The position numbers and the translations under genes are program-made. A stretch of DNA of 63,104 nt, the filler included, from Psammoneis japonica (Eukaryota), in the NCBI GenBank assembly GCA_008632985.1. It is 4 parts of 4 records of this genome, joined end to end, with 100 filler letters (N's around TTAATTAATTAA, not from the genome) between each part and the next. Parts side by side here need not be neighbours in the genome. Positions count along the whole stretch, not along the records: positions 47,617 to 63,104 come from QPGO01000490.1; 3 more parts are not named here. One strand, written 5' to 3'. The notes below the pieces were generated by a model that saw only the letters and a list, made by a program, of their open reading frames with translations, did no database searches and was not told the DNA's origin. Every line of letters starts with the position of its first letter. Positions within the stretch are counted from its first letter, which is position 1. Of this stretch, positions 16,184 to 63,104 are shown piece after piece.

Positions 16184-18431
<2,248 letters not shown>

Positions 18432-42486: not shown

Positions 42487-44559
42487 CGGCCCTTCTCTGT
42501 CCTGATGATGATTTCTCAGATGAGGCTGTCCCAACAGATGTTTTCCATGCTCACCTCAATGCGATCAGCTCCCGCTCTCTCACTCCGGAGGAGGCTGCTC
42601 TTGACCACATCGAATGGGAAGAAGGCGAGCAGCATCAACTGGACCAATTTCATGCTCTTGGTGTGCATGGCCCTCCCCAACCACGTCCCCCTGGAGCAAA
42701 TGTCATGCATCTGCATTGGGATTGCATGGTGAAGCCGGATGGACAACGTCGTTCTCGGCAATGTGGAGATGGTTCCAAGTCGGCAATGCCGGCCTTGCAT
42801 GAGTTGACTTCCACATGTTTGTCGTGTGTGGAACGTTCTGTCAAAAAGATGTTCTTTGCTCTCAGCGCAGCCATGTCGCATCGTGTCTTCAGCAGTGATG
42901 CTTGGGATGCCTGTGCTCATTCTCCTGGTCCTTCACAGCCGGTTCTTGTTGCTGTCAATGACGCACATGCTGCCTGGTGTGAAAAGAGATTTGGCAAGAA
43001 AGCACCCTGCCATTGTGTTCTCCTGCTCAAGCATGCTCTTCAAGGCCACCCTGAAGCTGGTGTCCTCTGGGAAAAGCGCGTCAATTTGATTCTAACAGGT
43101 GTGAAACTTCTTTTCTGCAATGCCGCTCATGACAAGTGCATCTGCTCTGGTGAATGTGATGGTGTCAAGGTCCTTCTGCTCCGTCAGGTTGATGATTTTG
43201 CACTTGCTTGTCCCTCTGAAAAGATTGCAAAAGAGATCTGCGACCATGTTGGCAAGGCTCTCCAGATGGAAAATGAGGACACTCCTCCGTTCAAGCATTT
43301 GGGCTTGGTTGCTGAATTCAATGGCATTGACATCATCCAAAATGACGACTCGATTGCTGTCAATGTTGCCAGTTACCTTGATCGTGTTTTCAAGACCCAT
43401 GGTTGGGATGATCCCGCTGCGAATGAATCTGAGTCTGATTTCAAAGCTGCACCTGTGCCGGTTGATTGCATCCCTGACCTGTGTGCTGCTGAAGGTCCTG
43501 CAGAGGGTGCTCCTGAGTGTGATGCTCTCTCCGAGTCCCAGGGTTTCTCTCACTGTTCTGTTCTGGGTGAATTGGTCTTTGCTCACTCGTGTTGTTGTTT
43601 GGATGTTGGTCATCCTGTTGTTGCCTTGTCCAAGTTTTCCAAGGCTCTGGCTGAGATTCATTGTGATTCACTCAAGTGCATGGCCAAGTGTTTGTGGTGC
43701 GCCAAACATTGGGGGCTGATGCATGAGAAGTCCAAGCGTGATCCCAGTCTGCCTCCTCGTGATTGTGAATGGCTTGAGGACATGTGATCCATCTCTTCCG
43801 GACTTCCCTTGTGCTGATGACCTCTTCCAACTCCAAGGCTTCATTGATGCAGCACATGCCAATGAACTGTGGCATCACCATTCTGCTGCCGGACACGTGC
43901 ATGTCCTTGCTGGTGCTGCAATTGATTGTCATTGCCGCGCGCAAGTGATTGCTGCCACCAGCTCCATGGAAGCTGAATTTCTCACGGCTGTTGCTGGTGC
44001 AAAACAGACCCTGCACCTCCGCATGGTTCTGGAAGAATTGGGCTTTCCTCGACGTGGTGCCACTCCCTTGCACATTGACAACTCCTCTGCCATCCAGATG
44101 ATCAATGACAAGGTGCCTGCAGAGCGATCCCAACACATTGATGTTCAACATTTTGCCATCCAAGACTGGTGTGACACAGGCAAGATTGTTGCTCGGCATG
44201 TCCCGGGTGTCATTGACCCTGCCGATGTGCTGACCAAGGCTGTGGGTTGGATGCTTCATGCCTGCCATGCCCGCCGTTTGATGGGACACTGCCATTGATT
44301 GTCATTGGGTTGTGTGGATTGAGTCTTGGGTGTGTCTCTCTTTTCTCTGTTTTGTTCTTTGCCACTCTGGCCCTCTCTTTTTATTCGGATCATCTCTTTC
44401 TTTCTTGTCGAGCATTGCATTGCTCATCATGGGAGGGTGACAAACATCCAAGATGGGGAGTGCACTCCCTTGTGTTGGACAGACTGGCATGGACAGCATG
44501 GAGAGATCCAATGATCTCTCCTTTGCTCACTTTCTTTCTCATCCAGCACACGATTGTCA
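42487..44559 (+). mobile_element. Copia C fragment (RT-RNase H plus putative 3' LTR 44438-44559), abutting the Gypsy 1 LTR
   Basis: HALQGHPEAG, LRQVDDFAL, FIDAAHA, MEAEF, IDNSSAI, DPADVLTK; PPT GGGAGGG followed by TGACAA..TTGTCA. Confidence 0.8.
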
Positions 44560-44639
44560 TCTGTCCTGGACATCCGTTAGATTGTCTTGATGCCACCAGT
44601 CCGCAAGTGCCGCCAACGAAAGCTTTTTCATGCACTGAA

Positions 44640-47516
44640 TCCCATCACACAGCAACATCATGACACCACTCACCCGCCCACCCAAGGACCACCACTTGCC
44701 CACATTGCAAATGAGCCTTCTCTTGAGCGCTCCATCATTTTTACCACAACCCGCACTGCGCCTCTGTTGTGCATGAGAGCATCATTCAGTCTCTTGGCAA
44801 CACTGCTGCTTCCCTGTTTGGTGTGGATGGTTTGATTGAGTTTGGTCAAGCATCATCAATTGGTCAGCTGTCTTCCTCAGATGGCTCGTCTCTCCCATGA
44901 TTGGGATGCTCACACCTTGAAGCAGCAATTGACAACATCCATCTCATTCTGTCACCTGCAGAAGCATCCAGCTGGGATGGACCACTGCTTGACAATGACA
45001 TTTCTCCCTTGTGTCTGTTTGTGACATGTTGCAGCATCAAGGCATGTCATGCAAAAACTCAGTTTCCATCCAACGTCCAACAACCAGAGCAAAGAAAACT
45101 TGTTTGAAGCCTTGCCTGACAATGCAATTGACACTGTTAAAAATGAAATGGAAGATGTGTCCTTGGCTCCCTTGTGTGGCGGTGTGTGTTTGAACAATGA
45201 CAGCAGGTTGGGCAAGGTCTGCCCTTTTCCAGCCACCAAAGCATTTGTGAACTTGCTGTCTCTGAGCACTCTCAATGGTGTTTGTGTGAAGCTTTGCAAA
45301 ATGGCAGACCACTGGCAAGCTCTGCTCCATTTGTGCAATGACATTGCATTTTTCATTGAACGACATTGCAGAACAAGCACTTTTCAGCTTGGAATGCAGA
45401 TGCCCCATTGACAAAAACTGGTGGAAACTCTGTCTGGAGTGTTCCCCCATCCCAAGTGTGAGTTGACACCCGTCAATTTAGAAAGTGCAGCAGGGGGGCT
45501 GGGTGAGAAAACTCTCCTGAATCCCACCTGCTGGACACCCACATGTGGGCAAAAGCTGACAACATGGCAGACCCAAAGAATCCATTTGGAAAGTGCTTGG
45601 CAAAGGGACCTGATGACAAGTGTGTCTTGGTGGGTGAGTGGCACAAATGCACTTGCCAAGCCAGAGTGGCCAATCTGCAAAAACAATTCCCAGAGTGTCT
45701 GATTGTGCATGCAGACAAGACTGGCAGGACAGCATCCATGGGATCTTCTTGCAGGGAGCCTGTCACAGTCACCTCAGCCCATGTTGCATTTAAAGAGTGG
45801 CACAACAAGTCCAAGTGGAGAGTCCTTGGGCACATTCCTGATCTTGAGAAAATGTTGCAGCAGTCCATCAATGCACATGAGTTGGAGAAGGGAAGCAGCT
45901 TGCACGACCATCACAAGGTCTTGTGGACAATGCCCCAGCTGCTGTTGGACATGATGCAATGCAGTGGCTTCCAATGCAATGCCAAGAGCAAAGACTGCCT
46001 GGTTGGTTGCTGCGGAGGCAAAAACTGTCGCCAGTGCTGTTTGCAATTTTGCATGACTGGACATCATGAGCTGGATGACCCATGGAAGGAATGCAAGCTT
46101 GTTTGGGAAAGCAGCATTGTGAGGGCACAGGCAATCACCAGGGACAAGGAACTCTCAGACAAAGAGAGGGCTCATTGGGAAAGGGAACTTGATTGTGCAA
46201 AGCAACACAACATCTCCACAAAGTGTTTGCTTCATGCCAACTTTGGAGAGCAACCATTTGGAGTGACCCTTTGCATGGCAAGCAACATGATGCACTGATT
46301 TGAGAAAAGGAACTCTGCAAAGAGAGGTTGTGGAGTCTTCATTGACAGCATGACCAACTCTGTGAGAACAGAGGTGGGTGGAATCATGGAAAGGATGTTC
46401 AGCAAACACTGATGATCCACTTGCAAATTTTTAAGAACAAATTTCAAAGGCGGTGCAACTTCACTTGCATTTCTAAATTTTTGTCACCAGGCCTTGATGG
46501 CACTTGTTTTCTGCCTGTTGCTGCTTGCCAAAGAAGGTTGTGATGCACGCACTTTGTGCTTCTTGTGCAAAGACACAGACAAACTGCCATCACCTGAAGC
46601 AAGACTCATTCCAAAATTCAGATTCAATCATTTCCATCAACCAAATGAGTGCAACAACACCAGCCGTGGCCAAGAAGATGAGTGCAATGCACGCACTTTG
46701 TGCTTCTTGTGCAAAGACACAGACAAGCTGACATCACATTGAGCAAGACTCATTCCAAAATTCAGATTCAATCATTTTCATCAACCAAATGAGTGCAACA
46801 ACACCAGCCGTGGCCAAGAAGATGAGTGCAATTCTGACAACAATGCAACCAACACACGGCGCATCATGCTGGAGGACTCTGTGAACCACCACCAGAATCC
46901 AGACAGCAATGTTGACAAGGACAGAGACAAGAACAACCATGGTTGGAAGAACAGCGAGATGCGCAAACCACTTCAATGCAGTGTTTGTCAGCGCACACAG
47001 CTCCTGGAAGATCTGCTGACATTCCATGCCTGGCGATGCAACTTGGCAACTCCCCCTGGACAGCGCAATGATCTCAACAAAATTGTGAAGAAAATGTGGC
47101 ACTTGGCATCATGCTCAGTGCATTTTTTACTTCGGCATGAAGGAGCCGCACGGAAGCTGCAAAAGCTGCACAAACTGCTGTGCCTCCTGACATTCCTGTG
47201 TTTTTCCTGACATGCAACGAACTTTGATGCCAGGTTGGGCAAGTTCCTCCTAAAGAGCAGCTGGCAACTGCACGACAATGCAGCTTCAAAGTGTTCTTCA
47301 TGCAAGTGGCCTCCCACATGGAAGACCAAATGCTCGTGCACCACACCATTGTCGCAAATGCATGGATGTTGGAAGACAAGGCAAAACAATGAGTGTCCGG
47401 TCCAATGTCTGGACACCATCTTGGCGGGAGCTCCTTCTCAATTTGGCAAGCAAAATGCAAAAGGCTGTGTCCTTTCATTGGTTGGGGAAACAAACCCGCT
47501 GCCAGGTGCACCCTGT
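44640..47516 (+). mobile_element. Degenerate DNA-transposon-like coding remnant (Plavaka/CMC-like), TpA- and CpG-depleted
   Basis: ORF 45543-46298 with DCLVGCC..CRQCC..LDDPW..FGEQPFGV..NMMH, reminiscent of Plavaka-type transposases; weak recognition. Confidence 0.4.
46543..46832 (+). repeat. ~144-bp tandem duplication
   Basis: atgcacgcactttgtgc...gaagatgagtgcaat occurs twice. Confidence 0.85.
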
Positions 47517-47807: not shown

Positions 47808-48250
47808 CTAACCATTTCCAGCCGCACTAACCTGCGAAAGAAATGTACACAGTCATATGATGAGTCTGGGGTTCTCTCGGAAACAGCGAATTCAGCACAG
47901 GCCAAGCACAGGAGCGTGGCACGACCAACATTGCTTACCCTTGGAATATCGTTGAGCTCTGTCAATTCGCCGAGTTTCTGATTAAATTCCTCAATTCTTT
48001 CGCGGTGACTTTTAGATGCAAGCTTCTCCAAATCCTTCTTCTCGCGTTCCAATTTCCGTTTCATGGCTCGTTGCTCTGCCTCCGTCATGTCATCATCCAC
48101 GTGACTTGCTCCCTCGTCTTCCTGTTTATTTCGTTGTTTCGCTTTCTTTTCATCCTCGCTGCGATGTTTTGACTTTCGACTCTTCTTTTTCGATTTCTTC
48201 TTCTCTCCCTTGAAAGATAGAGATCCTCCTACAAACGCTGTTTTCGTCAT
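47808..48250 (-). CDS. FAM32A-like (DUF1754) small nuclear protein; intron ~47832-47938
   Basis: GGSLSFKG.KKK, MTEAEQ, KSHRERIEEFNQKL..L.E.NDIPRV; last exon VSAAGNG*. Confidence 0.82.
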
Positions 48251-48373
48251 CGTGGCTGCTGGTACGCGTTGTTACTTGTTACGGTACCGGTGTGTTGGGA
48301 GTTGCCGCGGGATGCGGACGCGACATCGTGATCGCGCAGCTATGAGATACTGTTTTTTCGCTTCTTCTGCGGT

Positions 48374-48447
48374 GCCTGCTTAGCTCAGTTGGTTAGAGCA
48401 TTTCATTCGTAATGAAAAGGCCGCTAGTTCGAATCTGGCAGTAGGCT
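48374..48447 (+). tRNA. tRNA-Thr(CGT)
   Basis: Acceptor GCCTGCT/AGTAGGC, D-arm TAGCTCAGTTGGTTAGAGC, anticodon stem TTTCA/TGAAA with loop TTCGTAA, GTTCGAAT T-loop, downstream T-run. Confidence 0.93.
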
Positions 48448-48496
48448 TTTAATTTTTCCTGCAGGAACCGCATGTGACGAATCATCACTGCACCAC

Positions 48497-49367
48497 GAGC
48501 ACAGCACACATCATTTCAAGCCAGAGGGCAAGAAAACGATGAGTGATGCACAGGATGGCATGCAATGGCTGTTTGAGTCGAGAGTCTGCTCCAATGACAC
48601 GCATTTCATCTAATGTGACAGGCTCCAATCTTGTGCATCACAGACGTTGGCTTTTCGCACCAAAGACATTGACTTTTTTGCCCCCCCCCCCCCCCCAAGC
48701 GGGGAGGACATCGCATGGCAGCAGGAGGCACCACCAGGAGAGGGTTGTGCACAGCAGGCCCAGCATCTGCCACTTTGACGCTCTCTTGCACAGTGCTGTT
48801 GAACTTGAAATTCCAGGAGCCAGGCAGGATTTTTTTTGGCTGGGGCTCAACAAGAGAGCTTTTGTGCGCAGCTCTTGGCCTTTGGCGGAGCAGCTGCACG
48901 CTCGTTGCAAGCCATTTGGTCAGAGCATTTCATTTTCACAATGAAAAGGCTGCCAGCTCAAATCTGGCCCAGCTCAAATCTGGCAGCAGGCTTCGACTTT
49001 TGTGTGAAGACTCGCCGCACCACGCGCGCAGGAGCCGTGCACGTGAGCACATCATTTCAAGCTTCAAGCCAGAGAAGGGCATGAAAACGATGAGCGATGC
49101 ACAGGATGGGGTGCAATGTGGGTTTGAGTCAAGAGTCTGCTCTGATGACACATGCCTTGTGTCATCCAGTGTGGCTGGCTTCAATCTCTCGCATGGCAGA
49201 CATGCCAACTTTTTGCTTCCCCCACCACAAAGCAGGAGACACCCTCGAGCAGCAGCACCACCAGGGGGCCTGCAAGAAGGGGTGTTTGCAACAGGCCCAG
49301 CATCTGTGCTGCTTTGGCACTCTCTCACACAACATTGTGAAGCTTGAAATCCGAGAAGCCGGGCAGG
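48497..49367 (+). repeat. Diverged ~540-bp tandem duplication of the tRNA plus downstream flank; second unit continues at 61210 beyond the Gypsy 2 insertion
   Basis: cacatcatttcaagc..gatgcacaggatgg..gagagtctgctc at ~48505 and ~49047; caggatttt continuation at 61210. Confidence 0.7.
48916..48992 (+). pseudogene. Mutated pseudocopy of tRNA-Thr(CGT)
   Basis: ttggtcagagcatttcattttcacaatgaaaaggctgccagctcaaatctggc..agcaggct aligns to the tRNA and has a 16-bp internal duplication. Confidence 0.85.
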
Positions 49368-51503
49368 TGCACTGTGCTCGAAGAACGAGTGCAAACGAAA
49401 GTAGAGTGGTGTGCGAAAAGTGGAAATTGTGAGATTAAAATTTGCTCTGTGATTTTTGGTTTCTCCGAACGAGTTCTCAATGGCCCAAAGCTTCTGCACT
49501 GCTTCTGCAGACAAAAGGCCTTTCGGAGAATGCATTCGTGACAACAGATTGTCCGGATGCGATTGCTGTTGACACGCAAGATGTCAACATCGTCAATCGA
49601 TCGCACCTGCAATTCTCGACATCCGATCAACTCTGTGTGATCGTTCTGTCCTTTGTGCGCATCCACGACTGTGGTGCGATTGACACACAAATGACGTGTG
49701 ATCACAAATGTGTGTGTGACAGTCGCATGCTGCATTCGCCTCCCCAATTGCACATTGGAGTCATTTGCAAGTGGATTGTTCGACGGACATCGACAGTGTC
49801 AACAATGTCTCCACTTTCACTGCATTGTGCCATTGGCAATGACTGTTGTTGTTTTGCACGGGCAACACAGGGCCGTTCCAATTTCCAAATGTCTTTTGAG
49901 AGTGACATTGTTTGTTTCTCACTTAACATGTGCATGCACAGCACCATGTCGAGTGTTCTCATTGACGTTCTTGTTGATGTGAACACAAGGACTGATTGTC
50001 CTGGAGCAAGTGTTTTTCCTGACATCGATTGCACGTGGCATCGTGCCCAGTGCTTAATGTGCGCTCTCAATTGTGGCGTTCACTTGCTTGCTTGTGGATT
50101 TCATGCAGTTTGGCGGGCTTGCTTCATGTGCCATGTTGCTCTGCTGTGCTGCCACGTTTCACAAGTGACAACAAACGATGGTCAAAGATGTCATGACAAT
50201 TTCGTCTTGACAATCAATCCTGTGATGGTTGTGAATTCCATTGTGGATTTTTTTTTTTTTTGCACTTCAACCATCTGTCAGTTGGATTTTGATCGTTGTT
50301 TGGACGTTTCTTTCTGACATGCCGTTGTTGTTTTGTCATTCCGAAGGCACTGGTTTCGTGCACTGAGTGGGTGAATGTCCATTTTTCTTTTCTTTTTCTA
50401 GATCTTTGGCACATCTCGTGTGTCGACATGATGCACATTTTAATGTCTTGCCTTGTACATTGTACAATGCAACCGCACGGGTGTTGTGAGATTGTCTTTT
50501 GCCAGTGTGAAGTGGACACGTATGATGTGCGCCAATCTGTCACTGTTTTTTCCTAAATCGTCCTTTAAAAAGGCGATTTTATCCTTGTGACTTGAGCATT
50601 TTTTGATCTCGCTCGCCTCCACGAAAAGTGTTCGCATGATGTGTCGCGTCCGACAATTTGGAGGGAATGTCTTTGTCCCGTTTTAACGGCAGGACATTGT
50701 CGCAGGATTCAATTTTCTATGGCAAGTCGGCTGATCGCGTCTGTCGCGACGATGTTCGCCTTGCCCTCGTTGCAATCTAATTCGGGACTGAAGTTGTCAA
50801 CGCACGACTTTGTCCGTTGTGTCTTGTGATCCGTGTGTGCACAAATCTGTTGGCCAAACAGCATGTTTCGGAATTTTGTGAGTGTTTTCACTGTGGACAG
50901 AAGTTCTTTTTTCCGTTGTGACACACAATGTTGAAATCCGTGTATGATGACAACACAGTTTTTGATTTGACATGCTCCACATTTTCGGAGACTTTTCGTT
51001 CCGCACTTGCACTTTTGCCGTTTGACCTTCATTGAGGTGAATTTGGCTGGTGTTGTGCAGGAGATCGTTGAGACTGCATGTCTCGACAACAGCAACGCAT
51101 GACAACGAGATGTCGCAGTGTTCTTTGCGTTTTTCTCGTGTTGCGATTGCTTGAATCGCCTCCATTTTCTTTGCAATCGATTGCATGTCGTCACGCATGG
51201 AAGTCTTGACAGTTTGTTTCAAGTTAAACAGTGAAGGACTTTTGTTGTTGACCTTCTAAGCGACTGTTCTAGTCGTTTGAATGCCGCACTAAGCTGTTGC
51301 TTGCACAGGTGACATTTTGAAGTTACTTTTGTCAGGCACAAACGATCACATGTGGTCGTTCTGACAACTTCAAACCTGTCATGAGTTCACTCAAGTGTTG
51401 CACAAAAACATCTGGGGCTCTGTAGATTCTCATTGGAAGTCCACAGTGCTCATTTTCTCCCCACGGCATGATTTTCGTGTGAGCACGACGTGTGCTTTTT
51501 TTA

Positions 51504-54500
51504 TGACAGGATTTGAACAGGATTTGGATGCGCGCGAAGCATCGCGCGCTGTTTAGTTTACCGCGCACAGTTTTGTGTGCTTTAGTTCTGCGCGTTCACG
51601 CGCGATGCAGTTTGCTTTCGAGCCACAAGGCTCACAAGAATGACAACAGCAGCCCAATCACACCGACTTGCACGTCTTTCGGCTCCTGCAACGGTCTCTG
51701 AGCGGAGACTCATCTGCTGTTTAGACAGCAGCAAGGAGTCATTGTTTGAATTCTTGCCATTTGCCTTCAACTTCTGTCAGATTAACAGTCTTGCTCATTG
51801 TCAACCCATTGAGCAACCGCCATCGTCGTCGTTGATTTACCAACCACGCCATTTCAATTCCACGTGGACCTCCGTATGTGTTCTACATGCATCGGCAAGT
51901 CTACGCGCATTCAATGCCAGGGCATCGGCAGGAAGTTAACGTCACCGTCAAGTCTCCTTACCGCTGGATGTCTGGATTGATCATGCTGCCTTTGATCGCT
52001 GAAGACACACATTCAACGGTCACATCCAAGTCTGTCCTTGATCCTCATCCCTTGACACACCTGTTCATCGGTTGACGGTCAAGAACCCCACATGTTCAAG
52101 GATCTTCGTCGCTGGAGACATGTGTGTGCACGCATGTCTTCACGGCCAAGAACCTGCACCTGCTCTTCGGACCACGGTTTTGCTGCCACTCTGCAAGCAC
52201 ACCGAGTCCATTGCACCTGATCTGCCCCGGACCACTGGTGCTCCACAGCTCCACTGGGTCCACGAGGACGACTGTGAGAGCAAGCAGCCGTGATTGCAGC
52301 CCACGTTGGGGCGAGGGTGCTTTCCCGCGTTTGTTCATTCGTCCACAGCGCCTGACGCCTGCGTCAACTGGCCAGCCTGATCGGGAAATCCAACCGACAT
52401 AAAATGAGAACGGTTCGGGGGTCTTGTCCACCTCTGGTCAGCTCACCTGCAGGGGTTTACAACCCGCCACTCCGCTCGCAAGCAACCCAAAGCGCCGCCA
52501 GCTGCGGGTTCAGACGTGCCGGCACAACTCTACGGACCGGACAGGAAGTTTAGCACTTGACAACGAACGGGATGACAAAGCCCGGCGACTTCTGATTTTA
52601 AGACAGTTCAAGATTTCAAGTCAAGTCTGTTTCAAGTCAAGTCCATTCTCATCCAAGTTTTCGAGTCTGCCTTCGCTTCCCAACCAGAATTGATTGTCCT
52701 GACACCACTTTTGTCTGCCATGGTTCTCACTCGTCAGCAACAAACCGATGGTTTCGAGCACGTTGTTGGAACCGTGCTTGCTCAAGGTGCTGGGAGTCCT
52801 CTTCGTTTGGCTTTGGCCCAAGACGGCACGGACTCGTGTCAGGAACTGTTCACATTCATGCCGTCCCAAATCGACTCGCTTGAGCGCGACAACGGCACTG
52901 ATGTGATCCCTTTGCCCCGTGGCCATGAGAACATGTTAGCAGCACTGGCTGGCCTGCACATTGTCAAAGCACACAAGGGTCTTGACGTTGCCAACGACTC
53001 CTCTTTGTTCACGCATGACGAGTTCCTTGCCTGCCGCCTCAGCCCGGACTGCATGTCCTCTGTGTCCATCGGCAGCTCACCCCTTGCACCTCCACATGTC
53101 ACCAACCCGACCAAGGCACGCGACCCAGTGCGAGACTTCAAGCGAGGCATCAAGCGTGATCCCACCGCTTTCACGGCTCTCAAATCCGACAAGCAGTGGC
53201 ACACTTGGCACACCTCACTTGTGGCACAGGCCCGTGCCCAAGACGTCGAGTGCATTCTAGACTCGTCGTACAAACCGACCAGCCCCGAAGACAAACTGCT
53301 CTTTGCTGAACAGCAAAAGTGCATGTTCGCCATCTTTGAATGCATCCTTCTCACCGACAAGGGCAAGGCTCTCATTTGCGAAAATGTGGGGTCTTCTGAC
53401 GCACAGACCGTCTGCCGCTCCTTGTCTGAGCACGCGCTTGCCTCCACCCGTGCATCTGTCGAGTCCTCCACCCTGCTCACGCACCTCACCACCGCACGTC
53501 TTGGTGATGGCACTTGGAAAGGTCCGACCCACGGGTTCATCCTTCATTGGCAAGATCAGTTGCGCAAGTGCGAGGCACTCATCCCCGCCAGTGACCACTT
53601 CTCCGAAGGACAGAAGCGCGTCATGCTCGAGAATGCCATGCACCCTGTCGAGGAACTCCGTGCTGTCAAGAACCAAGCTGATCAGCATCGTGCGCAGAGT
53701 GGCAAGAGCCTCACATGCGATCAATGCTGTGGCTTGCTCCTCTCCGCGGCAGCTCAGTGCGACAGCACGTTTCAACCCAAGACGACACCTCGAGCTCCCC
53801 GACGCGCCACATGCGCACACGACGTCTGCTCCGAGGAACCGTCCGACGATGTGTTCTACGACATTGACAGTGATGTTGACGTCCTTCAAGCCAATGCTGC
53901 CTGCACCCGCGGTCCCAGCCTCACCGGTGTCCAATGGAGACGTCTCCCTCCCGACCACCAACGGCTCTGGGATTCGTTGCCCGATTCCTCCAAGGCGATC
54001 ATCATTGAGCACTCTCGCCCGCCTCCCCGCAACCCGCGAGCCAGCAACTGCCATGAGTCTGTTGCGGCCAACCTTCACGGCCAACACCTTGGGAGTGACG
54101 GTGATGTCAACTTGTCCAACACGACTCCTGCTGACTGTGGTGACTCCGCCACACATGTGGACGCCACTTCGGACAATCCCATCCTGGCGCACCTCACCAA
54201 GCGCAAGCCACTGCCACCCGGCGATCTGCAACGTCTGTTGTCTCCTAACCACGCCCCCAATGCCAGTCGACCGGGGCCATCCGCCGCTTCCTCTGCCCCA
54301 CCAGCTTCTGCAGATGACATGGAACTTAACGGCCGCACTTGCCGCCGCGTCAACAACCACAATGTCATTTGCTCTGCCTCTGCTCATCGCTCCACACGCA
54401 CTGGCGCTCTAGTCGATCGTGGGGCCAACGGCGGCATTGCTGGCGACGACGTTCGCGTCATCACACGCACCTCTCGCCAAGTCGACGTTCAGGGCATTGA

Positions 54501-57500
54501 CGATCATCAATTGGTGGACATCCCCATTGTCACTGCTGGTGCCGTCATTGAGACCCAGCGTGGTCCCGTCGTCGCCATCCTCCATCAGCACGCACACACG
54601 GGAAAGGGCAAGACCATCCATTCCTGCGGCCAGCTCGAATGGTGCAAACAGGATGTCAACGATCGCTCTGTCAAGGTGCCCAACGGCTTGCAACGTATTG
54701 CCACTCCTGATGGCTGTGTCATCCCCATTGACATCAAGGCTGGCCTGCCTCATGTTGCCATGCGACCTTGCACTGACGCCGAATGGGACACCCTGCCCCA
54801 TGTCATCCTCACCGGTGATGACACATGGGACCCTTCCGTCCTCGATCACTCTGTCACTGACAACGACCAGTGGTGCGACGCGATCTCTGACCTGCAGGAC
54901 GATCCCACTGCCAACCTGTTTGACAAACACGGCAACTACCGTCACCGTGTCGTTGTCAACGAGACCATCTTGTCCGCTTCCTTGTCTGCCGATCACGCGT
55001 CCGCCCTCGATGATCACCTCATTCCGAACGACGACGTGTTCCACGAGTGTCATCTGCATGCGATTGACCCCCAGGGCGATGACGTTCCACCTCCGGAGCG
55101 CACTGTCCAGCCCAAGGACCCCCCCTTCGAGTCTCTTCGGCCTTGCTTTGGCTTCCTGCCTGCCGATGCGGTCCGTCGCACTTTTGACTGCACCACGCAG
55201 TGCACCTGCATGCCCGCCGGCACACACCTTCGCAAGGCCTGCAAATCACCCAATCCCACCCTCAATGTGCACCGCCACAACGAGCCTGTCGCCACTGACA
55301 CCGTTCATGCCGACACCCCGGCCGTCGACTCTGGTTGCACCAGCGCCCAACCATTTGTTGGCACCGAGTCTACCGTCACTGACGTCTGCGGCACTAAGAC
55401 GGACAAAGAGTTTGTCAACACACTCGAGGATCAGATCCGTGAACGTGGTGCCCCATCCAAACTCATTGGCGACCGTGCTCAAGTTGAAATCAGCAACAAA
55501 GTGCTCGGGATCCTACGCGCCCTCTTCATCTCCAGCTGGCAAAGTGAGCCTCACCAGCAACACCAAAACTTTGCCGAGCATCGACACCAGACCGTGAAGC
55601 ACATGGCGAACACTGTCATGGACCGTTTTGGTTCGCCCGCCCACACATGGCTGCTGGCGCTCATGTGCGTGTGCTTCACACTCAACCACACAGCGTCCCC
55701 ACGTCTCCACTGGCGCATGCCCCTCGAGACTCTCACTGGATCCACCCCGGACATCAGCCCATTGCTTCGCTTTCACTGGTGGGAACCAGTGCACTTCCAC
55801 CTCGATGACTCCGATTGGCCGTCCGAATCCCGTGAGTTGCGCGGACGCTTCGTTGGCATTGCTGAGCACGTCGGCCACCAGATGACCTTCAAGATCCTGT
55901 CTGACGAGACTCAGAAGATCCTCTGCCGGTCCAACGTTCGCTCCGCCACCCCTGATCCTGCCGTTCGAAACCTGCATCTTGATCCTCCTGATGGGGAGCC
56001 ACCTGAACCCATCATCAAATCTCGCCATGACGACAACCCCGTCGATTCTCCTGATGGGGAGATCAGGACACCCAAGATGCCAGTTTTCGATCCGCAAGAC
56101 ATCATTGGACGTACCTTCCTCATGCAGCCACAAGAGGACGGACAACGCCACAGAGCTCGCATCGTCAAGGCCGTCGAAGACCACGAATGGAAAGTGAACG
56201 GCAATCCCGAGCTCACTAAGTTCGTCTGCTCTGTCAACAATGACGAATACGAGGAAGTCCTTGCCTGCAATGACATCATGAATCACATTGAGCAAGAAGA
56301 CGAAGACACCACCATTTGGAAATTTCGACGCATCGCATCACACGAAGGACCTCTGAAGCCTCACGACCCAACCTGGAAAGGCTCAAGCTACAACATCATG
56401 CTTGAATGGGAAAGTGGGGAGATCACGTCCGAGCCTCTTGCCATCATCGCCAAGGACGACCCCGTCACCTGTGCCATCTGTGCACGAGAGAACGGACTCC
56501 TAGACACGGATGGCTGGAAGCGGTTCCGCACTATCGCGAGGCGCCAAAAGAAGCCATTTCGCATGGCCAACCAAGCCAAGCTTCGCTCCTTCCGCACTGC
56601 ACCTCGCTACAAGCACGGATGCGAAGTTCCCCGGAACTACAAACACGCCATGTCACCAGACGAACGCAACGGCAACCGCAAGTGGGGAGACGCAACTAAT
56701 CTCGAGATGGACCAACTCGACGAATGCGAAGTCTTCCATGACTGCGGGCCCTTCAAGTCTTCCACTCCTCCTGCGGGACACAAGAAGATCCGAGTGCACC
56801 TGGTGTTCGACGTGAAACACGACGGTCGCCACAAGGCACGACTCGTAGCCGACGGGCACCTCACGGACGCACCTGTCGACAGTGTGTGCTCCGGAGCAGT
56901 CTCCCTCCGTGGCCTTCGGCTGATGATTTTCCTGGCCGAACTCAACGAGCTGGAGACATTGGCCACCGACATTGGCAATGCCTGCCTTGAAGCCACCACC
57001 AAGGAGAAGCTTTACATTGCAGCTGGACCCGAATTTGGCAAACTCGAAGGACACATCCTTGTCATCCACAAGGCACTGCATGGACTGCGCAGCTCCGGTC
57101 TCCGCTGGCACGAGCGCTTCGCCGACTGCCTGCGAGCTGAAGGCTTCTTCCCCTGCCGCGCCAAACCCGACATTTGGATGCGCAGGGACGGCGACCACTG
57201 TGAATGCATTGGCGTTTATGTGGATGACCTCGCCATTGCCATGAAGGATCCTCAATCTTTCATCGACACTCTCACGGAAAAATGCAAGTTCAAGCTCAAG
57301 GGTGCGGGACCCATTGAGTTCCATCTGGGTTGCGACTTTTCCCGGGACCCCGACGGAACCTTGTGCCTGTCTCCGCGCAAGTGCATCGAGCGCATGGTCG
57401 ACAGCTGCGCCCGATTGTTTGGGGAGAAACCTGCCACCAATGCCCTGTCACCTCTAGAGAAGGGTGACCACCCCGAACTGGACACTTCCGAACTGCTGGG

Positions 57501-58612
57501 ACCCGATGGCATTCACAAGTTCCAGTCTCTTGTTGGTTCACTCCAATGGGCAGTGTCCCTTGGTCGAATTGACATCACCACGGCTGTCATGTCACTCTCT
57601 AGCTTCCGAGCTGCGCCCCGTCAAGGCCACTTGGATCGTGCCAAACGCGTCTGTGGGTGCCTCTCCAAGATGCGACACGGTGCTCTCCGCGTTCGCACGG
57701 AAGAGCCCGACTGTTCGGATCTCCCTGCTCCGGCCTGTGAATGGATGCATTCCGTGCATGGTGAAGCAGAAGAGATGATCCCGAAGGATGCTCCACCGCC
57801 CCTTGGCAAGTTCGTCACTGCCACCCACTGCGTCGATGCAAACTTGCACCATTGCATGCTCACCGGATGCTCTGTCATGGGAATGCTCCACTTCCTCAAC
57901 AAATTCCCGGCTGATTGGTTCTCCAAGAAACAAGCCACCGTGGAGACTGCAACCTGCGGATCTGAATTTGTTGCCGCAAGGAATTGTGTTGAGCAGATTG
58001 TCGACCTGCGCATCACCCTGCGCTGCCTTGGCGTCCCGATCCGTAATGTCAGTTGCATGTTCGGTGACAACAAGTCGGTTGTAGACAGTGCCACCATCCC
58101 GCACTCCAAGTTACACAAGCGACACACCGCACCATCGTTCCACCATGTGCCTGAGGCAATTGCCTCTGGTTGCCTTGAGCTCCACTTCATCGAGGGCTCC
58201 CGCAACCCTGCTGACATTCTCAGCAAGCATTGGGGTTGCTCCCAAATCTGGGACCTTCTCCGCCCCCTCATGTTCTGGAACTTCATCCCATCCGAAGTCG
58301 AATCTGTTTCTGTGGCTCCTCAAGCAAACTGGGGAGTGACAGGATTTGAACAGGATTTGGATGCACGCGAAGCATCGCGCGCTGTTTAGTTTGCCGCGCA
58401 CAGTTTTGTGTGCTTTAGTTCCGCGCGTTCACGCGCGATGTAGTTTGCTTTCGAGCCACAAGGCTCACAAGAACAATGACAGTAGCCCGATTGCACCGAC
58501 TTGCACGTCTTTCGGCTCCTGCAACGGTCTCTGAGCGGAGACTCATCTGCCATTTAGACAGCAGCGAGGAGTCATTGTTTGAATTCTTGCCATTTGCCTT
58601 CAACTTCTGTCA
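51504..58612 (+). mobile_element. Copia A (CoDi-like), full length; 276-bp LTRs 51504-51779 and 58337-58612, 5-bp TSD TTTTA
   Basis: LTRs TGACAG..CTGTCA, PPT GGGGAG, TTTTA on both flanks, single gag-pol ORF. Confidence 0.95.
52720..58389 (+). CDS. Copia gag-pol polyprotein (~1889 aa), open but hypermutated (Tyr to Cys/His)
   Basis: Protease LVDRGANGG, integrase TDTVHAD..SEPHQQHQNFAE, RT KARLVADGH and YVDD, RNase H VDAN/SEFVA/DNKS/NPADILSK. Confidence 0.92.
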   Translation: MVLTRQQQTDGFEHVVGTVLAQGAGSPLRLALAQDGTDSCQELFTFMPSQIDSLERDNGTDVIPLPRGHENMLAALAGLHIVKAHKGLDVANDSSLFTHDEFLACRLSPDCMSSVSIGSSPLAPPHVTNPTKARDPVRDFKRGIKRDPTAFTALKSDKQWHTWHTSLVAQARAQDVECILDSSYKPTSPEDKLLFAEQQKCMFAIFECILLTDKGKALICENVGSSDAQTVCRSLSEHALASTRASVESSTLLTHLTTARLGDGTWKGPTHGFILHWQDQLRKCEALIPASDHFSEGQKRVMLENAMHPVEELRAVKNQADQHRAQSGKSLTCDQCCGLLLSAAAQCDSTFQPKTTPRAPRRATCAHDVCSEEPSDDVFYDIDSDVDVLQANAACTRGPSLTGVQWRRLPPDHQRLWDSLPDSSKAIIIEHSRPPPRNPRASNCHESVAANLHGQHLGSDGDVNLSNTTPADCGDSATHVDATSDNPILAHLTKRKPLPPGDLQRLLSPNHAPNASRPGPSAASSAPPASADDMELNGRTCRRVNNHNVICSASAHRSTRTGALVDRGANGGIAGDDVRVITRTSRQVDVQGIDDHQLVDIPIVTAGAVIETQRGPVVAILHQHAHTGKGKTIHSCGQLEWCKQDVNDRSVKVPNGLQRIATPDGCVIPIDIKAGLPHVAMRPCTDAEWDTLPHVILTGDDTWDPSVLDHSVTDNDQWCDAISDLQDDPTANLFDKHGNYRHRVVVNETILSASLSADHASALDDHLIPNDDVFHECHLHAIDPQGDDVPPPERTVQPKDPPFESLRPCFGFLPADAVRRTFDCTTQCTCMPAGTHLRKACKSPNPTLNVHRHNEPVATDTVHADTPAVDSGCTSAQPFVGTESTVTDVCGTKTDKEFVNTLEDQIRERGAPSKLIGDRAQVEISNKVLGILRALFISSWQSEPHQQHQNFAEHRHQTVKHMANTVMDRFGSPAHTWLLALMCVCFTLNHTASPRLHWRMPLETLTGSTPDISPLLRFHWWEPVHFHLDDSDWPSESRELRGRFVGIAEHVGHQMTFKILSDETQKILCRSNVRSATPDPAVRNLHLDPPDGEPPEPIIKSRHDDNPVDSPDGEIRTPKMPVFDPQDIIGRTFLMQPQEDGQRHRARIVKAVEDHEWKVNGNPELTKFVCSVNNDEYEEVLACNDIMNHIEQEDEDTTIWKFRRIASHEGPLKPHDPTWKGSSYNIMLEWESGEITSEPLAIIAKDDPVTCAICARENGLLDTDGWKRFRTIARRQKKPFRMANQAKLRSFRTAPRYKHGCEVPRNYKHAMSPDERNGNRKWGDATNLEMDQLDECEVFHDCGPFKSSTPPAGHKKIRVHLVFDVKHDGRHKARLVADGHLTDAPVDSVCSGAVSLRGLRLMIFLAELNELETLATDIGNACLEATTKEKLYIAAGPEFGKLEGHILVIHKALHGLRSSGLRWHERFADCLRAEGFFPCRAKPDIWMRRDGDHCECIGVYVDDLAIAMKDPQSFIDTLTEKCKFKLKGAGPIEFHLGCDFSRDPDGTLCLSPRKCIERMVDSCARLFGEKPATNALSPLEKGDHPELDTSELLGPDGIHKFQSLVGSLQWAVSLGRIDITTAVMSLSSFRAAPRQGHLDRAKRVCGCLSKMRHGALRVRTEEPDCSDLPAPACEWMHSVHGEAEEMIPKDAPPPLGKFVTATHCVDANLHHCMLTGCSVMGMLHFLNKFPADWFSKKQATVETATCGSEFVAARNCVEQIVDLRITLRCLGVPIRNVSCMFGDNKSVVDSATIPHSKLHKRHTAPSFHHVPEAIASGCLELHFIEGSRNPADILSKHWGCSQIWDLLRPLMFWNFIPSEVESVSVAPQANWGVTGFEQDLDAREASRAV

Positions 58613-61600
58613 TTTTATTTGACACGGTGGCATTCCATGTTTGAATCAAGTGGATTGCACACATGAAACGTTCTTGCTTCAACAGTGTTTCCTGAATGTT
58701 GGGTGAAGGATGCACCACCTGCACGAACCTTGTGCCAAGCTTCTGAGTGTCGGGTGCGGTCGAACTCGACCTGTTTTCTTTGGACAATGAGTCTCAGAGC
58801 GACTCATTCAGAGCAATTTCATTCTTAAGACTTCAATCTTTCACAACAGGTCAAACTCCTTTTGATTGGACGCCTCCAAAGACTGTGATGGGAGAAGGTT
58901 CTCACGCGTCGTGGAATCGCGTCAGATTTTCCACGATGAGATCCACTGATGTTTCCCATGCATTCGTCTGAGGAACTTTTCAAAATGATTTCAACCTCTC
59001 AAGAAGAAGATTGAGATGGTTGTGTTCATTTGGGTTAGATGCATCGCCGCAGTTGTCACTTGGTTAAGATCGATGGCGTGACAATGTGAGTCGAGGACCA
59101 TTGGTTCCGTCACTGACTCCATTCACGGCGTCACATTTTTCAATGTGATCGGTTTTCAGCTTGAAAACATCGGCATCGAAGAGTGCACGAACATTCTTCA
59201 TAAGGTGATTGCTTCTTCCCATTAGATTTCTGCATTTGCGCAGTCCAACATGACTTGCAGGACTGGACATTGAGTCGCGTCCCATGATCACATCATTTGA
59301 ACCTGAAGAAAATTTGGTGTTTTCAACATGTGCTGTTTGAACATCAGCATGCCTTAAATTTCACATGGTGAGAACTGAATTCGGTGTTTGCTGTCAGTCG
59401 TAAAGAGCTCACCCTTGGTTTCCCAAGTTTTTTGGCGGTGGGTGTTTTGGTTCTCAACTTTCGCACGAATTTGCGCAAAATTGTGGTTGACGATGTTCCG
59501 TTGTCGATCGGAACACGTAGATGCTTTTTTCTCTCCTTTCCCAAGGAAGTGTTCACACAAATGATGACTCCTGGACTGGCATGAATTATTTCTGCCTTTT
59601 TTCTGGGCTTCCTGACATCCAGTGAAGCAAATAATTCGTGAACAGACCCAAAATTGTTCTTCGGATTCAGTCTGGATCATCCGATCAAATTGGCACTTTT
59701 CTTCACTGAGGGCATCAGAATCTGATTCTTTGCCCTTGTGCTCTTTTTCTTTGTTCAAGGAACTCGCTTTGAGCATTTTTTGAACCGCCTGATCAATCAT
59801 GACGTTCATCTCTTTTTTTGCGAGCGGCATTTTCGTCATCGCGACGCGACCGCGTGCGATTGCCATTTGAACGGCGCATTTTTGGGTCTCTTTCAGAGTC
59901 ACCCTTGCACTCTTTTGCTAGTTCATTTTTAGAATGGCTTCAATCCGTGATGTGGGCATTCTTTTTTCAAAGACAAGACCTTGCATTCACTTTGGATTGT
60001 TCTGGTGCCACACAGGAGACCATTTTTGGAACCAAATTTGGAACCTTTTTTATTTTGGAACCAACTGCGCTGTCAGAGCCTGAGTTGACATGTTTTTTCG
60101 TCACGGACGTCATGAACGACCTTTAGATGACTCAAAACTTAATCAGCTCATCAAGGATGAGTTGCAACAGTTGATTGTTTTGGACAGTAGACTGGTGCTG
60201 CCATCCTTGCGGTGCGAGTGATGGCTGACAAATCAGCGCTCGGTTTCCCGCTAGATTCGACTTAGAATCCATCTGAGGGTCGCACAGACTCTCATCATTG
60301 ACCTCTTGGGTCTAACAGAGGCTTTCTTGCTGTCAAGCAGCTCTGGTTTCTTCAGATCGTCTTGAAAATAACAGCTCTGATTCTGAAGTGCAGTTCTTGG
60401 AAAGACATGAGATGTGAGACTCTTGAGGTACTTTCCAACGGTTCCATCTTGCTCTTGGACTCGAGGCTCGTTGATTCGGTCTCCAAAAACTCTCCAACAG
60501 TCTCTCCTTGCATGCTAGACGCATTTCTCGGACCTGATCGACTCGGAACTTGCACTCTCTGCAACCATGACTTGGTGTAGATTTTTTGACAATGTGGTGT
60601 GCTTGAGAGCCCTTGATCCTTGGGTGCTTGGAATAGACCGCATTAGAGCGAATCCTCTTGTTTGGCAGACGAAAAACAGCGTTCCATCTTGAGGCACTGC
60701 TCGGCTTGAGCTTCTTCCGCTCGGAAATCGATTCCAGCAGAACTGATGCGATTCGTTCCTGTCCACAGAAGAATTTGCAAAGGCACATTAGTTAAAATTT
60801 TCATTTTCCGTGCTTTTTACCTTCTGTGGTGTGTATACACAATGCACTATGCTCGAAGAACGAGTGTAAACGAAAGTAGAACAGTGTGCGAAAAGTGGAA
60901 ATTATGAGATTAAAATTTGCTCTGTGATTTTTGGTTTCTCCGAACGAGTTCTCAATGGCCTAAAGCTTCTGTACTGCTTCTACAGACAAAAGGCCTTTCG
61001 GAGAATATATTCGTGACAACAGATTGTCCGGATACGATTGCTATTGACACGTAAGATGTCAACATCGTCAATCGATCGTATTTGCAATTCTCGACATCCG
61101 ATCAACTCTGTGTGATCGTTCTGTCCTTTGTACGCATCCACGACTGTGGTACGATTGACATATAAATAATATATAATCATAAATATGTATATAACAGTCG
61201 CATACTGCACAGGATTTTGGCAGCTCTTGGCGCCTTTGCCCCTGGGCCTGTGCACTTGTTGCGAGCCGTTTTGGAGCTCGGCCACTGGGGACTGTGCATG
61301 CAAGATCATGATCTGCACCCCAGTGCTTGTCAAGCACTTCATAATCATTTTTTAGTGCACATGTTTTGTGGTGGGAAACTTGGCTCCATCTTCCCCTTGT
61401 GAGAATCATTCGAAAGCGGGGCAAACCTGAAAGCGTTGAGAATAAATCATCATATGCTAAAATGTATGTCATTCAATTAATGAATCCAATTGGATATATA
61501 TTCATATTTTTATATCTATCGTTTCTTAACCACGATTGATAATTATGCAGAAATTAATGTACCATTTAGTACTCTCTACTTAGAGCATGATGTTGTGTTG

Positions 61601-61776
61601 ATGTTCTCAAATCGTGGTTCATTCTGCGATGTCGGCAAGAGCGATTGACAGCCATTTTGCCATGCTGCTGTCTTGTTTCTTTGTTGGAATTCAAGTGTCA
61701 GGCCAAAACGAACATAAAACCCAGAAGTGCATCGAGCACAACTAAACCCCCGAGACGCAATTGACAGCGATCCGCT

Positions 61777-63104
61777 ATGAACGAGAACCCGCCCTTATCG
61801 TCTCTCACGTCTTTTTTGCGGCCTCGAACGTCGCACCATGATACAGCGAGTTCACCGCTCTTTTCGGCTTCGGACTATTCTTTTGGCGAGGACGACGTAA
61901 CGAAAGAGGAACCAACCTATGTTTCTGTCGGGGAGTTTCTGTCAAGGTTCCGTGATCATGGGTCTGAATCACTTTGCAACGCTTATGAGTAAGTTCAGTG
62001 CAAGTTAGTTCTGCAACATACCGTTTGCTCCTGTTTTACAAGATTTATATAAGTGCTATGTTAAACGTGTGACAAAATTTCGTGACAGAGCGAGCCATCC
62101 CCACAATACGGCTTTTCACTCCGGGGCTGTAACAACAACGCTATGTGAGGATGTATTTTCTCTCGTCGACCTACAGGTCAACGCACTACATGACTATGTT
62201 GCGGGCTTGGAGCTCCTGAAAACCAAAACCGGCGACACAGTTTTGATAGATGGGCTGTCTTTTGTCTTTAGAAATCTGTGGTACAAGCAACGTCAATATC
62301 GCGATAACTTTCTCCTGGATTTGAGTTCATCTTGTGCGGCGGCCAACGACTTTCTGAGAATGGTAGAAAGAGCTGAGAGTCTGGTTGAACATTTAAAGGA
62401 GAGATACGATCACCTGCAATGGGAACGATCAGAAGTAGAATCAACTGAAGACCCACGAGTGGCGGGGCTCTCTGAGAAGATGGCCGATCTTGTTCGCCTA
62501 TACAGTGGCGATGCTGTAATTGCAGCACAGCGCGTTCACGTGTTTCTTTTCCAATCTGTCAATCGATCATCCATAAAATCTGATATGTTTAGTCGGAACT
62601 GGGAAGAGCTGACTCACAATCAGCTCACGCTGAGCCTGGTGAAAACAGTAGAAGATTACTTGTCCGATTCCCAGCAATACCTTTGCAATGAATTCCTTTG
62701 TGTCAAGGCTATTGACGCGGCGGTGAAGGCCACTGTTTGCTTTTACGTCAGGTGTCTCGTCCTGAAAGCCGACACCGTCCGCCACAAAATGCGAAATTTG
62801 ACGTCTCACGGAGGTCGACTTGCGTTCAAGAACCCGGCTAGGGCTCTTACTCGAATGATGTATGACATTGATATCATTCAAGATTACTTTCGAGAGCTCG
62901 CAAAGGATTCTTCGGCACTTTCTCGGCTTGTTGAGCAGGAAGTGTCGGTCCTCATTGCGATTCATGAGTTCTTGGGAGTTGCCGTGGGGAAAGTCGATGC
63001 TGAGAGCTTGGAGCATCTGATTATTGTTCTTCATAAAAAGACAGGGGGGAGCCTTATGGTAACTACGTATTTGTTGGAGGATATGTGGTTTTTGTTTGCG
63101 CCTG
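61777..63104 (+). CDS. Probable exocyst Sec6/EXOC3-like helical protein, multi-exon, runs off the window end
   Basis: Open frame from 62176 (after ..ctacag) reads CAAANDFLRM..MFSRNWEE..LVKTVEDYLSD.QQYL, resembling the Sec6 C-terminal domain; upstream exon at 61777-61988; normal TpA content. Confidence 0.55.

Follow-up and report, generated by a model that had tools for sequence, protein, structure and literature searches.

A retrotransposon insertion in the diatom Psammoneis japonica whose two long terminal repeats differ almost exclusively at TpA dinucleotides

The insertion and its two terminal repeats

The DNA analysed here, referred to as the window, is a stretch of 63,104 nt from the genome assembly GCA_008632985.1 of Psammoneis japonica; it is a chain of separately assembled contigs, and neighbourhood across its three artificial spacers is not biological. 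The object of the study is a long terminal repeat (LTR) retrotransposon at 49368–61209, which lies wholly inside the contig starting at 47617, is oriented on the minus strand and contains a nested Ty1/Copia element on the plus strand (Table 1). One of the two LTRs of this recent insertion has nearly every TpA dinucleotide rewritten to TpG or CpA.

The left and right LTRs, of 367 nt each, align without gaps and differ at 32 positions (8.7%), with zero transversions and zero changes at CpG. Written as left/right, the differences are G/A in 19 cases, C/T in 12 and T/C in one, so that in all but one of them a G/C of the left LTR faces an A/T of the right LTR (31/32, binomial p = 1.5e-8). Twenty-seven of them fall on the 56 bases making up the TpA of the right LTR (hypergeometric p = 1.6e-20); the other five are at LTR positions 39, 40, 41, 239 and 240. 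The number of TpA is 28 in the right LTR versus 2 in the left LTR: at the 28 sites the left LTR shows TG (16), CA (9), CG (1) or an unchanged TA (2, within GTAG and TTAA). All 21 CpGs of the right LTR are retained in the left, and the GC content is 0.471 on the left and 0.390 on the right. This pairwise alignment had been proposed as a check in a preliminary description of the locus, and the TpA tally counted there by hand was reproduced exactly; what it had given as about five other bases, no indels and retained CpGs came out as five bases, no gap and 21 of 21 CpGs.

That the two LTRs delimit one and the same insertion had also been proposed, from the CAGG tetranucleotide found on both sides of 49368–61209, and both LTRs end with TG...CA. 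Read evidence was sought in the contigs of four public sequencing runs (X1 to X4), placed on positions 48000–62500; no RNA run was listed among the public sequencing runs of the sample. A contig of run X1 (828 nt, depth 42.8) joins 48781–49363 straight to 61210–61455: it omits 11846 nt and has four bases common to both sides at the joint. Because this empty-site contig is exact, the LTRs belong to one insertion and the CAGG target-site duplication (TSD) is real. The segment 49368–61209 is therefore a single insertion with a genuine 4-bp duplication, still polymorphic in the sample.

The insertion sits within an older TA-free block, which is at single-copy read depth, is without TA in the empty allele too and gave no Pfam match. 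The two alleles of this flank, that of the empty site and that of the window, are not the same: they differ by TG versus CA at 48951–48952 and by TA versus TG at 61343. It seems that two haplotypes of an old TA-free flank went on mutating separately.

Table 1. Coordinates of the insertion, of its parts and of related features in the window
Feature	Position	Strand	Remarks
Left LTR, 3' LTR of the outer element	49368–49734	-	TpA-stripped, 26/28 sites changed
Polypurine-tract-like run	49735–49745	-	11 purines on the minus strand, adjoins the left LTR; read from sequence
Outer element, 3' internal part	49735–51498	-	degraded, TpA-poor (about 12 TA/kb)
Remnant open reading frame with RT_RNaseH (PF17917)	50712–51218	-	E = 1.8e-5, 25.3 bits, cut-off 24.8
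TSD TTTTA of the nested Copia	51499–51503 (left), 58613–58617 (right)		5 bp
Nested Ty1/Copia element	51504–58612	+	rho(TpA) 0.15, GC 0.566
Nested Copia LTRs	51504–51779 and 58337–58612	+	
Copia polyprotein frame (P0001)	52576–58389	+	1937 codons, uninterrupted; RVT_2, E = 5.6e-24
Outer element, 5' internal part	58618–60788	-	TpA-poor; changed sites to at least 60776
Unmutated tract	60789–61209	-	right LTR (60843–61209, 28 TA) and 54 nt of internal sequence (5 TA)
Left TSD copy, CAGG	49364–49367		flanking sequence and the 4 bases shared in the empty-site contig
Right TSD copy, CAGG	61210–61213		flanking sequence and empty-site contig
Older TA-free block around the insertion	48612–49367 and 61210–61341		888 nt in total, 0 TA
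Second, diverged copy of the outer family	31871–42487	-	separate contig, TpA-stripped; 3' LTR at 42107–42487
Artificial contig joins	15921–16020, 31771–31870, 47517–47616		44 N, 12-base six-frame stop linker, 44 N

The outer element has the features of an LTR retrotransposon, i.e. direct LTRs with TG...CA ends, a TSD, an empty site and a polypurine run. The purine run next to the left LTR would set its orientation and the remnant of a reverse transcriptase-associated ribonuclease H domain (RT_RNaseH) is on the minus strand; together they make the right LTR the 5' LTR and the left LTR the 3' LTR. That remnant was the only Pfam match of the outer element; none of 11 other minus-strand open reading frames (ORFs) had an accepted family. 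As to the Gypsy label given in the preliminary description, membership of the LTR retrotransposons stands, and the narrower assignment to Gypsy hangs on the one weak RT_RNaseH match. The nested element is of the Ty1/Copia type on account of its RVT_2 domain, its LTRs and its 5-bp TSD, and its polyprotein has 1576 homologues at E ≤ 1e-5.

A second copy of the outer family, 18–27% diverged, lies on another contig. It contains a nested Copia of its own at 36798–39916; the idea that both copies share the same nested Copia was rejected, the amino-acid identity being 25–37%. A tandem duplication of 992 nt with 100% identity (39951–40942 and 40943–41934) is found inside this TA-stripped copy, where it may have arisen recently or have been created by the assembly. 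The host genes in the window code for LRR, ankyrin, TPR, peroxidase, Sec10, PhyH and Sec6 proteins, and the PhyH gene has relatives in Cyclotella, Thalassiosira, Fragilaria, Seminavis and Nitzschia (50–77% identity); by these genes and relatives the genome is placed in the diatoms. Two adjoining ORFs at 16761–18428 each hold part of a haem peroxidase (PF00141), just before a gap of 628 N at 18867–19494, and may belong to one gene that an intron or a change of frame interrupts.

Loss of TpA across the window and direction of the change

Depletion of TpA extends far beyond the left LTR. The transposon blocks that were counted (1–2000, 26000–29000, 31900–47100, 48611–49734 and 51504–58617) contain 128 TpA in 28.4 kb (4.5/kb) versus 1046 in 28.3 kb of gene DNA (37/kb), and the edges are sharp. 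The TA/AT ratio is below about 0.1 in these blocks and 0.4–0.9 in gene DNA, the (CA+TG)/(AC+GT) ratio of the blocks is 1.6–2.1, and rho(TpA) of stripped DNA ranges from 0.0 to 0.3. The two ratios of the blocks deviate in the sense contrary to the indices of repeat-induced point mutation. Almost all the transposon DNA in the window has been hit and the host genes are unaffected.

Since TAA and TAG stops cannot occur in DNA free of TA, whatever the frame, long overlapping ORFs are found on both strands and in several frames of the stripped segments (e.g. 53261–54412 on the plus strand and 53257–54408 on the minus strand); they are mostly spurious. Another observation concerns the blocks 1–2000, 26000–29200 and 45000–47000, which are poor in both TpA (0–4/kb) and CpG (2–23/kb) and have a (CA+TG)/(AC+GT) ratio of about 2. 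Their appearance is that of older remains of transposons where TpA hypermutation and CpG decay have each gone to the end; their ORFs matched no Pfam family.

Pairwise comparison of the LTRs cannot by itself separate the two possible directions of change. TG and CA could be the ancestral states, the right LTR having then been hit by C-to-T changes at CpA/TpG in the manner of the repeat-induced point mutation (RIP) of fungi. The composition of the right LTR is indeed borderline RIP-like (TA/AT 0.74, (CA+TG)/(AC+GT) 1.06), and of the 26 changed LTR sites, 20 read TG or CA in the second copy of the outer family, 15 of them with the same dinucleotide as the left LTR. This copy (there 42107–42486, reverse complement) had been put forward as an outgroup able to polarise the changes, a role for which it is unsuitable, being itself TA-stripped; for the same reason its agreement with the left LTR is no refutation of an ancestral TA. 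The preliminary description had favoured TA as ancestral on the grounds that a single TA allele stands opposite both TG and CA. Its conclusion holds, by way of four other lines of evidence, but the argument is indecisive, as the outcome of RIP hitting CpA on either strand would look no different.

The first line comes from the tyrosine codons, which always contain TA. The Copia polyprotein was aligned with 60 homologues of more than 1800 residues, taken from the best 120 of the 1576. Among the 51 columns with Tyr in at least 70% of these 60 homologues, the window Copia has Cys in 29, His in 8, Tyr in 7, Phe in 5, Arg in 1 and Trp in 1; for every other residue class of the same alignment, 74–95% of the columns are kept. 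The overall composition goes the same way: Tyr, Cys and His amount to 0.46%, 3.46% and 4.96% of the window protein, against means of 3.84%, 0.97% and 3.56% for the best 120 of the 1576 homologues (minimum Tyr, 2.86%). Conserved Tyr codons have thus become Cys or His codons. One of the seven retained tyrosines is that of the YVDD motif of reverse transcriptase (codon 1548 of P0001, 57217–57219); its codon is TAT, in the most mutable context, and its retention may be due to chance or be a trace of past selection.

The second line rests on the fact that TG and CA are each one step from TA and two steps from each other, so that discordances between them point to a TA ancestor. Over 1723 aligned nt, the outer-family copies show 42 TG-versus-CA discordances, versus 3 to 8 for each of the five other double-transition classes. 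Five such discordances separate the left LTR from the LTR of the second copy, which keeps TA at two further sites, and four are found between the nested Copia LTRs, whose 15 differences are all in TA, TG, CA or CG dinucleotides. At positions 39–41 of the outer LTR, which include the only ‘reverse’ difference of the pair, GTG on the left faces ACA on the right, both one step from ATA. After polarising in this way, the left LTR accounts for 31 of the 32 changes, all A/T to G/C, and the right LTR for one, from TA to CA.

The third line is given by the reads. Runs X2 to X4 are of low depth and assemble abundant sequence only. All three yielded contigs of the right-LTR form, with 1, 7 and 4 other letters in 264, 327 and 247 nt, respectively, and no contig over the bins of the left LTR; the TA-rich form is the abundant LTR form in these three low-depth runs. 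One low-depth contig of this form reaches into internal sequence. It reads CTAA at a site where the window copy and the second copy both have CCAA, and TTAG where they have TTGG and TCAG, respectively.

The fourth line is provided by metagenomic relatives of the nested Copia. A scan with the homologue alignment gave 79 loci, one of the two patterns used containing Tyr and thus being biased against mutated copies; all 79 have a rho(TpA) of 0.50–1.15 (median 0.73) and a GC content of 0.44–0.52, compared to 0.15 and 0.566 for the window Copia. The same scan with the mutated Copia protein alone found no relative. Tyr codons, TG/CA discordances, reads and metagenomic relatives all indicate that TA is the ancestral state, and on these grounds the RIP-like reading is rejected. 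Moreover, the anomaly is a lack of TpA in transposons, not a surplus, relative to gene DNA, and the host is a diatom, not a fungus. We regard ancestral TG/CA as barely tenable.

The family of the nested Copia seems to be present in extremely many copies, and those of its abundant forms that lie within 95% identity also seem TA-poor. Summed contig depths are 36,000–160,000 for the nested Copia and 3,800–25,000 for the outer family, with unique flanks at about 50. Among some 30 listed read variants of the Copia (there are 188 more), two restore TA, three are TG/CA swaps and most oppose CG to TG or CA; since only contigs at least 95% alike were included, nothing firm follows from them on the TA-richness of the abundant form. 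The CpG differences of the nested and outer LTR pairs were compared to ask whether the composite had been copied as a unit; double hits on TA can mimic a CG versus TG/CA difference.

Context, strands and rate of the change

Simple rules emerge when the neighbours of TpA are considered. Relative to gene DNA, TTAA is 7.2-fold enriched among the surviving TpA and CTAA/TTAG 3.7-fold; ATAG/CTAT is down to 0.07 and ATAC/GTAT to 0.15, and ATAT, present 86 times in gene DNA, is found 0 times in the stripped blocks. When TpA were sorted by the number of strands reading T-A-Y (Y, pyrimidine), those with none, one and two numbered 76, 45 and 7 in stripped blocks versus 178, 519 and 349 in gene DNA. In the LTR pair, a pyrimidine follows the A in 13 of the 16 TG outcomes and a purine precedes the T in 8 of the 9 CA outcomes. 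The surviving TpA point to 5'-T-A-Y as the target. Double hits are rare (CG at 1 of the 26 changed LTR sites, CGC in 1 of the 51 Tyr columns), which would be expected because the first hit removes the 5' T needed by the other strand.

The same context effect bears on the possibility that the changes were made before integration, by an ADAR- or ADAT-like enzyme editing RNA or complementary DNA (cDNA), the edited copies then being integrated. The targets are retroelements, and Tyr-to-Cys outnumber Tyr-to-His changes 29 to 8 on the Copia sense strand, as might result from the editing of one strand. However, the bias follows the base before the codon: after a purine, the outcome is Cys in 13 columns, His in 7 and an unchanged Tyr in 1, and after a pyrimidine Cys in 16, His in 1 and an unchanged Tyr in 6. 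In the minus-oriented outer LTR, the strand bias is opposite to that of the Copia. The sense-strand bias is therefore an effect of context and not a sign of RNA editing. ADARs favour a 3' G, whereas the favoured 3' neighbour here is a pyrimidine. The preference for a 5' T does resemble that of ADARs and tRNA adenosine deaminases, as the Discussion of Mettrop et al. (bioRxiv 10.64898/2026.01.13.699255) also mentions. Three further points oppose editing ahead of integration. The two LTRs are copied from the same template, which makes 26 differing sites between them impossible; both strands were hit within the left LTR (16 TG, 9 CA), a poor fit to the editing of a single-stranded intermediate; and the single-copy flank is TA-free with alleles that differ from each other. 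We consider this origin of the changes highly unlikely.

The rate is as distinctive as the context. The left LTR underwent about 2.6 hits per TpA, versus 4 changes in 168 other A/T bases, all four A/T to G/C, and 1 in 143 G/C bases; this would put the rate at TpA at least 100-fold above that of other sites. The differences between the LTRs of one insertion, and those between the alleles of the single-copy flank, indicate an action on integrated DNA; both strands were hit, and the action was restricted to transposon sequence.

An artefact in which modified bases at TpA in silenced DNA were misread, so that TA-free blocks do not exist in the DNA itself, was also considered. The pattern is confined to repeats, native-DNA sequencing platforms do miscall modified bases and the type of library is not on record. 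On the other hand, the contigs built from the X1 reads are also TA-free and, in the single-copy flank, differ from the window by only four other letters in 583 nt; left-LTR-like X1 contigs exist at 95% likeness or more. With an average of about 214 nt and a depth of about 50, the X1 contigs look like the product of short reads. Finally, TG in one allele or copy faces CA at the same site in another, which is unexpected from a systematic miscall. Such an artefact is very improbable.

Proposed process, known counterparts and consequences

The explanation that we hold to be probable is that of a young, polymorphic, minus-oriented LTR retrotransposon with a nested Copia, whose left LTR was changed by a TpA-specific A:T to G:C process acting on chromosomal DNA. 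The two LTRs would have been identical at integration, in the TA-rich form now retained by the right (5') LTR. A mutation process would then have acted on the left (3') LTR in the chromosome, and on almost all the other transposon DNA of the window, converting A:T to G:C at 5'-TpA-3' with TpG as the product of a hit on the top strand and CpA of one on the bottom strand; it would require the T before the A and be favoured by a following pyrimidine. As to the chemistry, an enzyme of the TadA/ADAT kind may deaminate adenine to inosine in DNA; tRNA adenosine deaminases of this type require a U before the target A. Targeting would be directed at silenced transposons, as a genome defence, and the right LTR would have escaped because targeting is local, tied for example to transcription starting inside the 5' LTR.

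Several observations weigh against this account or some part of it. The four runs come from one sample, maybe the very source of the assembly. At 15 of 26 changed sites the second copy and the left LTR read alike; we attribute this to the context preference steering independent hits alike, the numbers being small. The intact tract is sharply bounded: with the ancestral TpA sites of the outer element marked from the second copy, changed sites are found at 60764 and 60776, and then 33 TA follow between 60789 and 61209, with a single TA to CA change at 60882 and every other TA kept. This tract lies between mutated internal DNA and the TA-free flank, a pattern that gene conversion or polishing would also fit. 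In the nested Copia, both LTRs have been stripped to much the same extent (4 and 5 TA), and hence there is no simple rule by which the 5' LTR of every element is spared. Lastly, a chemistry centred on thymine leaves the same sequence signature as deamination of adenine.

Local targeting from a transcription start in the 5' LTR, which would spare the promoter and the first 100–200 nt, is one of three readings of the escape of the right LTR; somatic hypermutation, with its 5' boundary, offers an analogy for a spared promoter. The equally stripped Copia LTRs neither contradict transcription-linked targeting, if the outer transcript covers them, nor support it. Position at the edge of a targeted domain is an unlikely cause and was set aside: neither allele has any TA in the 132 nt that follow the right LTR, and the apparent transposon island of 16 kb at the left is a separate contig behind an artificial spacer.

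The other two readings keep the same polarity and suppose that both LTRs were TA-poor from the start or came to be so, and that the right LTR and the adjoining 54 nt were later overwritten, by ectopic gene conversion from an intact copy or by short-read polishing of the assembly towards the abundant TA-rich form. In their favour, the inner edge of the intact tract (about 60789–61209) is sharp and the tract stops together with the homology to other copies, only 1 of 264 positions distinguishes the right LTR from an abundant read contig, and X1 contains a TA-rich and a TA-poor LTR form, each in abundance. Against them, polishing would be expected to affect both LTRs, nothing positively indicates a conversion event, and zero transversions and zero CpG changes fit a very young pair on which one process only has acted. 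Overwriting is, in our judgement, unlikely without being negligible. If it did occur, polarity and process stand, and the pair is weaker as a proof of change in place and as a clock; provided that it did not, the left LTR would have been changed in place.

As for the chemistry, the base attacked could instead be the thymine of TpA, modified for example to a hydroxymethyluracil-type base and then miscopied as C. TpA being self-complementary, T-to-C in R-T-A (R, purine) and A-to-G in T-A-Y look identical in sequence, and nothing in the sequence speaks against the thymine. Adenine deamination has for it the precedent of the U-requiring tRNA deaminases, and it is also what is proposed for Bigelowiella natans (bioRxiv 10.64898/2026.01.13.699255). 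We see a thymine-centred reaction as the less likely option, though one of some weight.

A bolder view, which we put forward only tentatively, is that the genome defence of diatoms includes a natural adenine base editor working on the chromosomal DNA of transposons, guided by transcription or nascent RNA and therefore sparing the 5' LTR with its promoter while erasing TpA from the body and the 3' LTR. If shared with the chlorarachniophyte case described below, it would be an old system of the Stramenopila-Alveolata-Rhizaria (SAR) group and a mirror image of RIP. Such an editor would turn T-A-Y into T-G-Y on either strand until TpA is nearly gone, removing Tyr codons and creating no stop. Because TA to TG or CA never makes an in-frame stop (TAA and TAG stops can become only TGA, CAA or CAG), the frame of 1937 codons is intact despite the loss of 44 of the 51 conserved Tyr.

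The closest counterpart is found in B. natans. The abstract, Results and Discussion of Mettrop et al. (bioRxiv 10.64898/2026.01.13.699255) describe 302 de novo mutations in that alga, 231 of them in two integrated viral regions; these were essentially all A/T to G/C and without exception at TpA, and their rate was some 1000 times the background. The targets described there are integrated nucleocytoplasmic large DNA virus (NCLDV) and virophage DNA, the TpA-poor genes being enriched in reverse transcriptase and DDE domains; an ADAT2-like enzyme is proposed as a candidate (10.64898/2026.01.13.699255). Shared features are the A/T to G/C change on TpA, giving TpG or CpA according to the strand, the limitation to foreign DNA, the sharp limits and probably a rate far above background. 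There are also differences. The host here is a diatom (Stramenopila) and not a chlorarachniophyte (Rhizaria), and the targets are LTR retrotransposons and relics. The loss is near saturation (rho(TpA) 0.0–0.3, versus 0.45 reported for the B. natans viral region), and the evidence is comparative, with the LTR pair as internal control, in place of de novo mutations in lines. The preference for a 3' pyrimidine is without a counterpart in the abstract, Results and Discussion of the preprint. As far as these parts of the source go, the process has the same signature as the TpA hypermutation of B. natans, the sole matching report found, and its direction is opposite to that of fungal RIP. No report of TpA hypermutation in diatoms was found in the open full-text literature searched, and a look-up of terms in diatom mutation-rate and transposon papers (PMC6604790, PMC2806351 and 10.1101/2025.10.24.684338) returned 0 relevant passages.

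With RIP the process shares dinucleotide-specific transitions, action on both strands of repeated or mobile DNA, sharp borders and a coding capacity that is quickly wrecked. RIP, however, takes C:G to T:A, from CpA/TpG to TpA, so that repeats are enriched in TpA and become AT-rich. Here the direction is opposite, from TpA to TpG/CpA; the GC content of the LTR goes from 0.39 to 0.47, no stops arise, and there is no evidence for duplication-sensing or for a premeiotic step. The comparison with methyl-CpG deamination is also of limited reach. This reaction too feeds TpG and CpA and is seen in the window in blocks 1–2000, 26000–29000 and 45000–47000, but CpGs are kept in the LTR pair (21/21) and CpG decay cannot change Tyr to Cys or His. 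APOBEC enzymes change C, not A, and APOBEC3 and ADAR act before integration and on one strand, leaving the same edits in both LTRs; here 26 TpA sites differ between the LTRs and both strands are hit. What the process has in common with APOBEC3 and ADAR, which are also taken up in 10.64898/2026.01.13.699255, is a deaminase-type signature on retroelements, with a neighbour preference, that is read as a defence.

Some consequences are practical. Dating by LTR divergence would badly overestimate the age of such insertions, the present pair being 8.7% diverged without ordinary substitutions. In gene prediction, TA-free DNA yields long ORFs that are spurious, and the polyproteins of dead elements look intact. 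The process raises the GC content of transposons. As for the detection of repeats, copies that were hit independently come to resemble each other in their TG/CA patterns, by which consensus sequences and copy phylogenies can be misled.

The LTR pair can also be taken as a natural experiment, which ties together integrated DNA, both strands and a three-base preference, and thereby as a specification for finding a natural DNA adenine editor. If the interpretation is true, P. japonica would represent the second lineage, and the first stramenopile, with a TpA-directed A:T to G:C hypermutation of invading DNA, and the case of B. natans would then be part of a wider phenomenon and not a curiosity.

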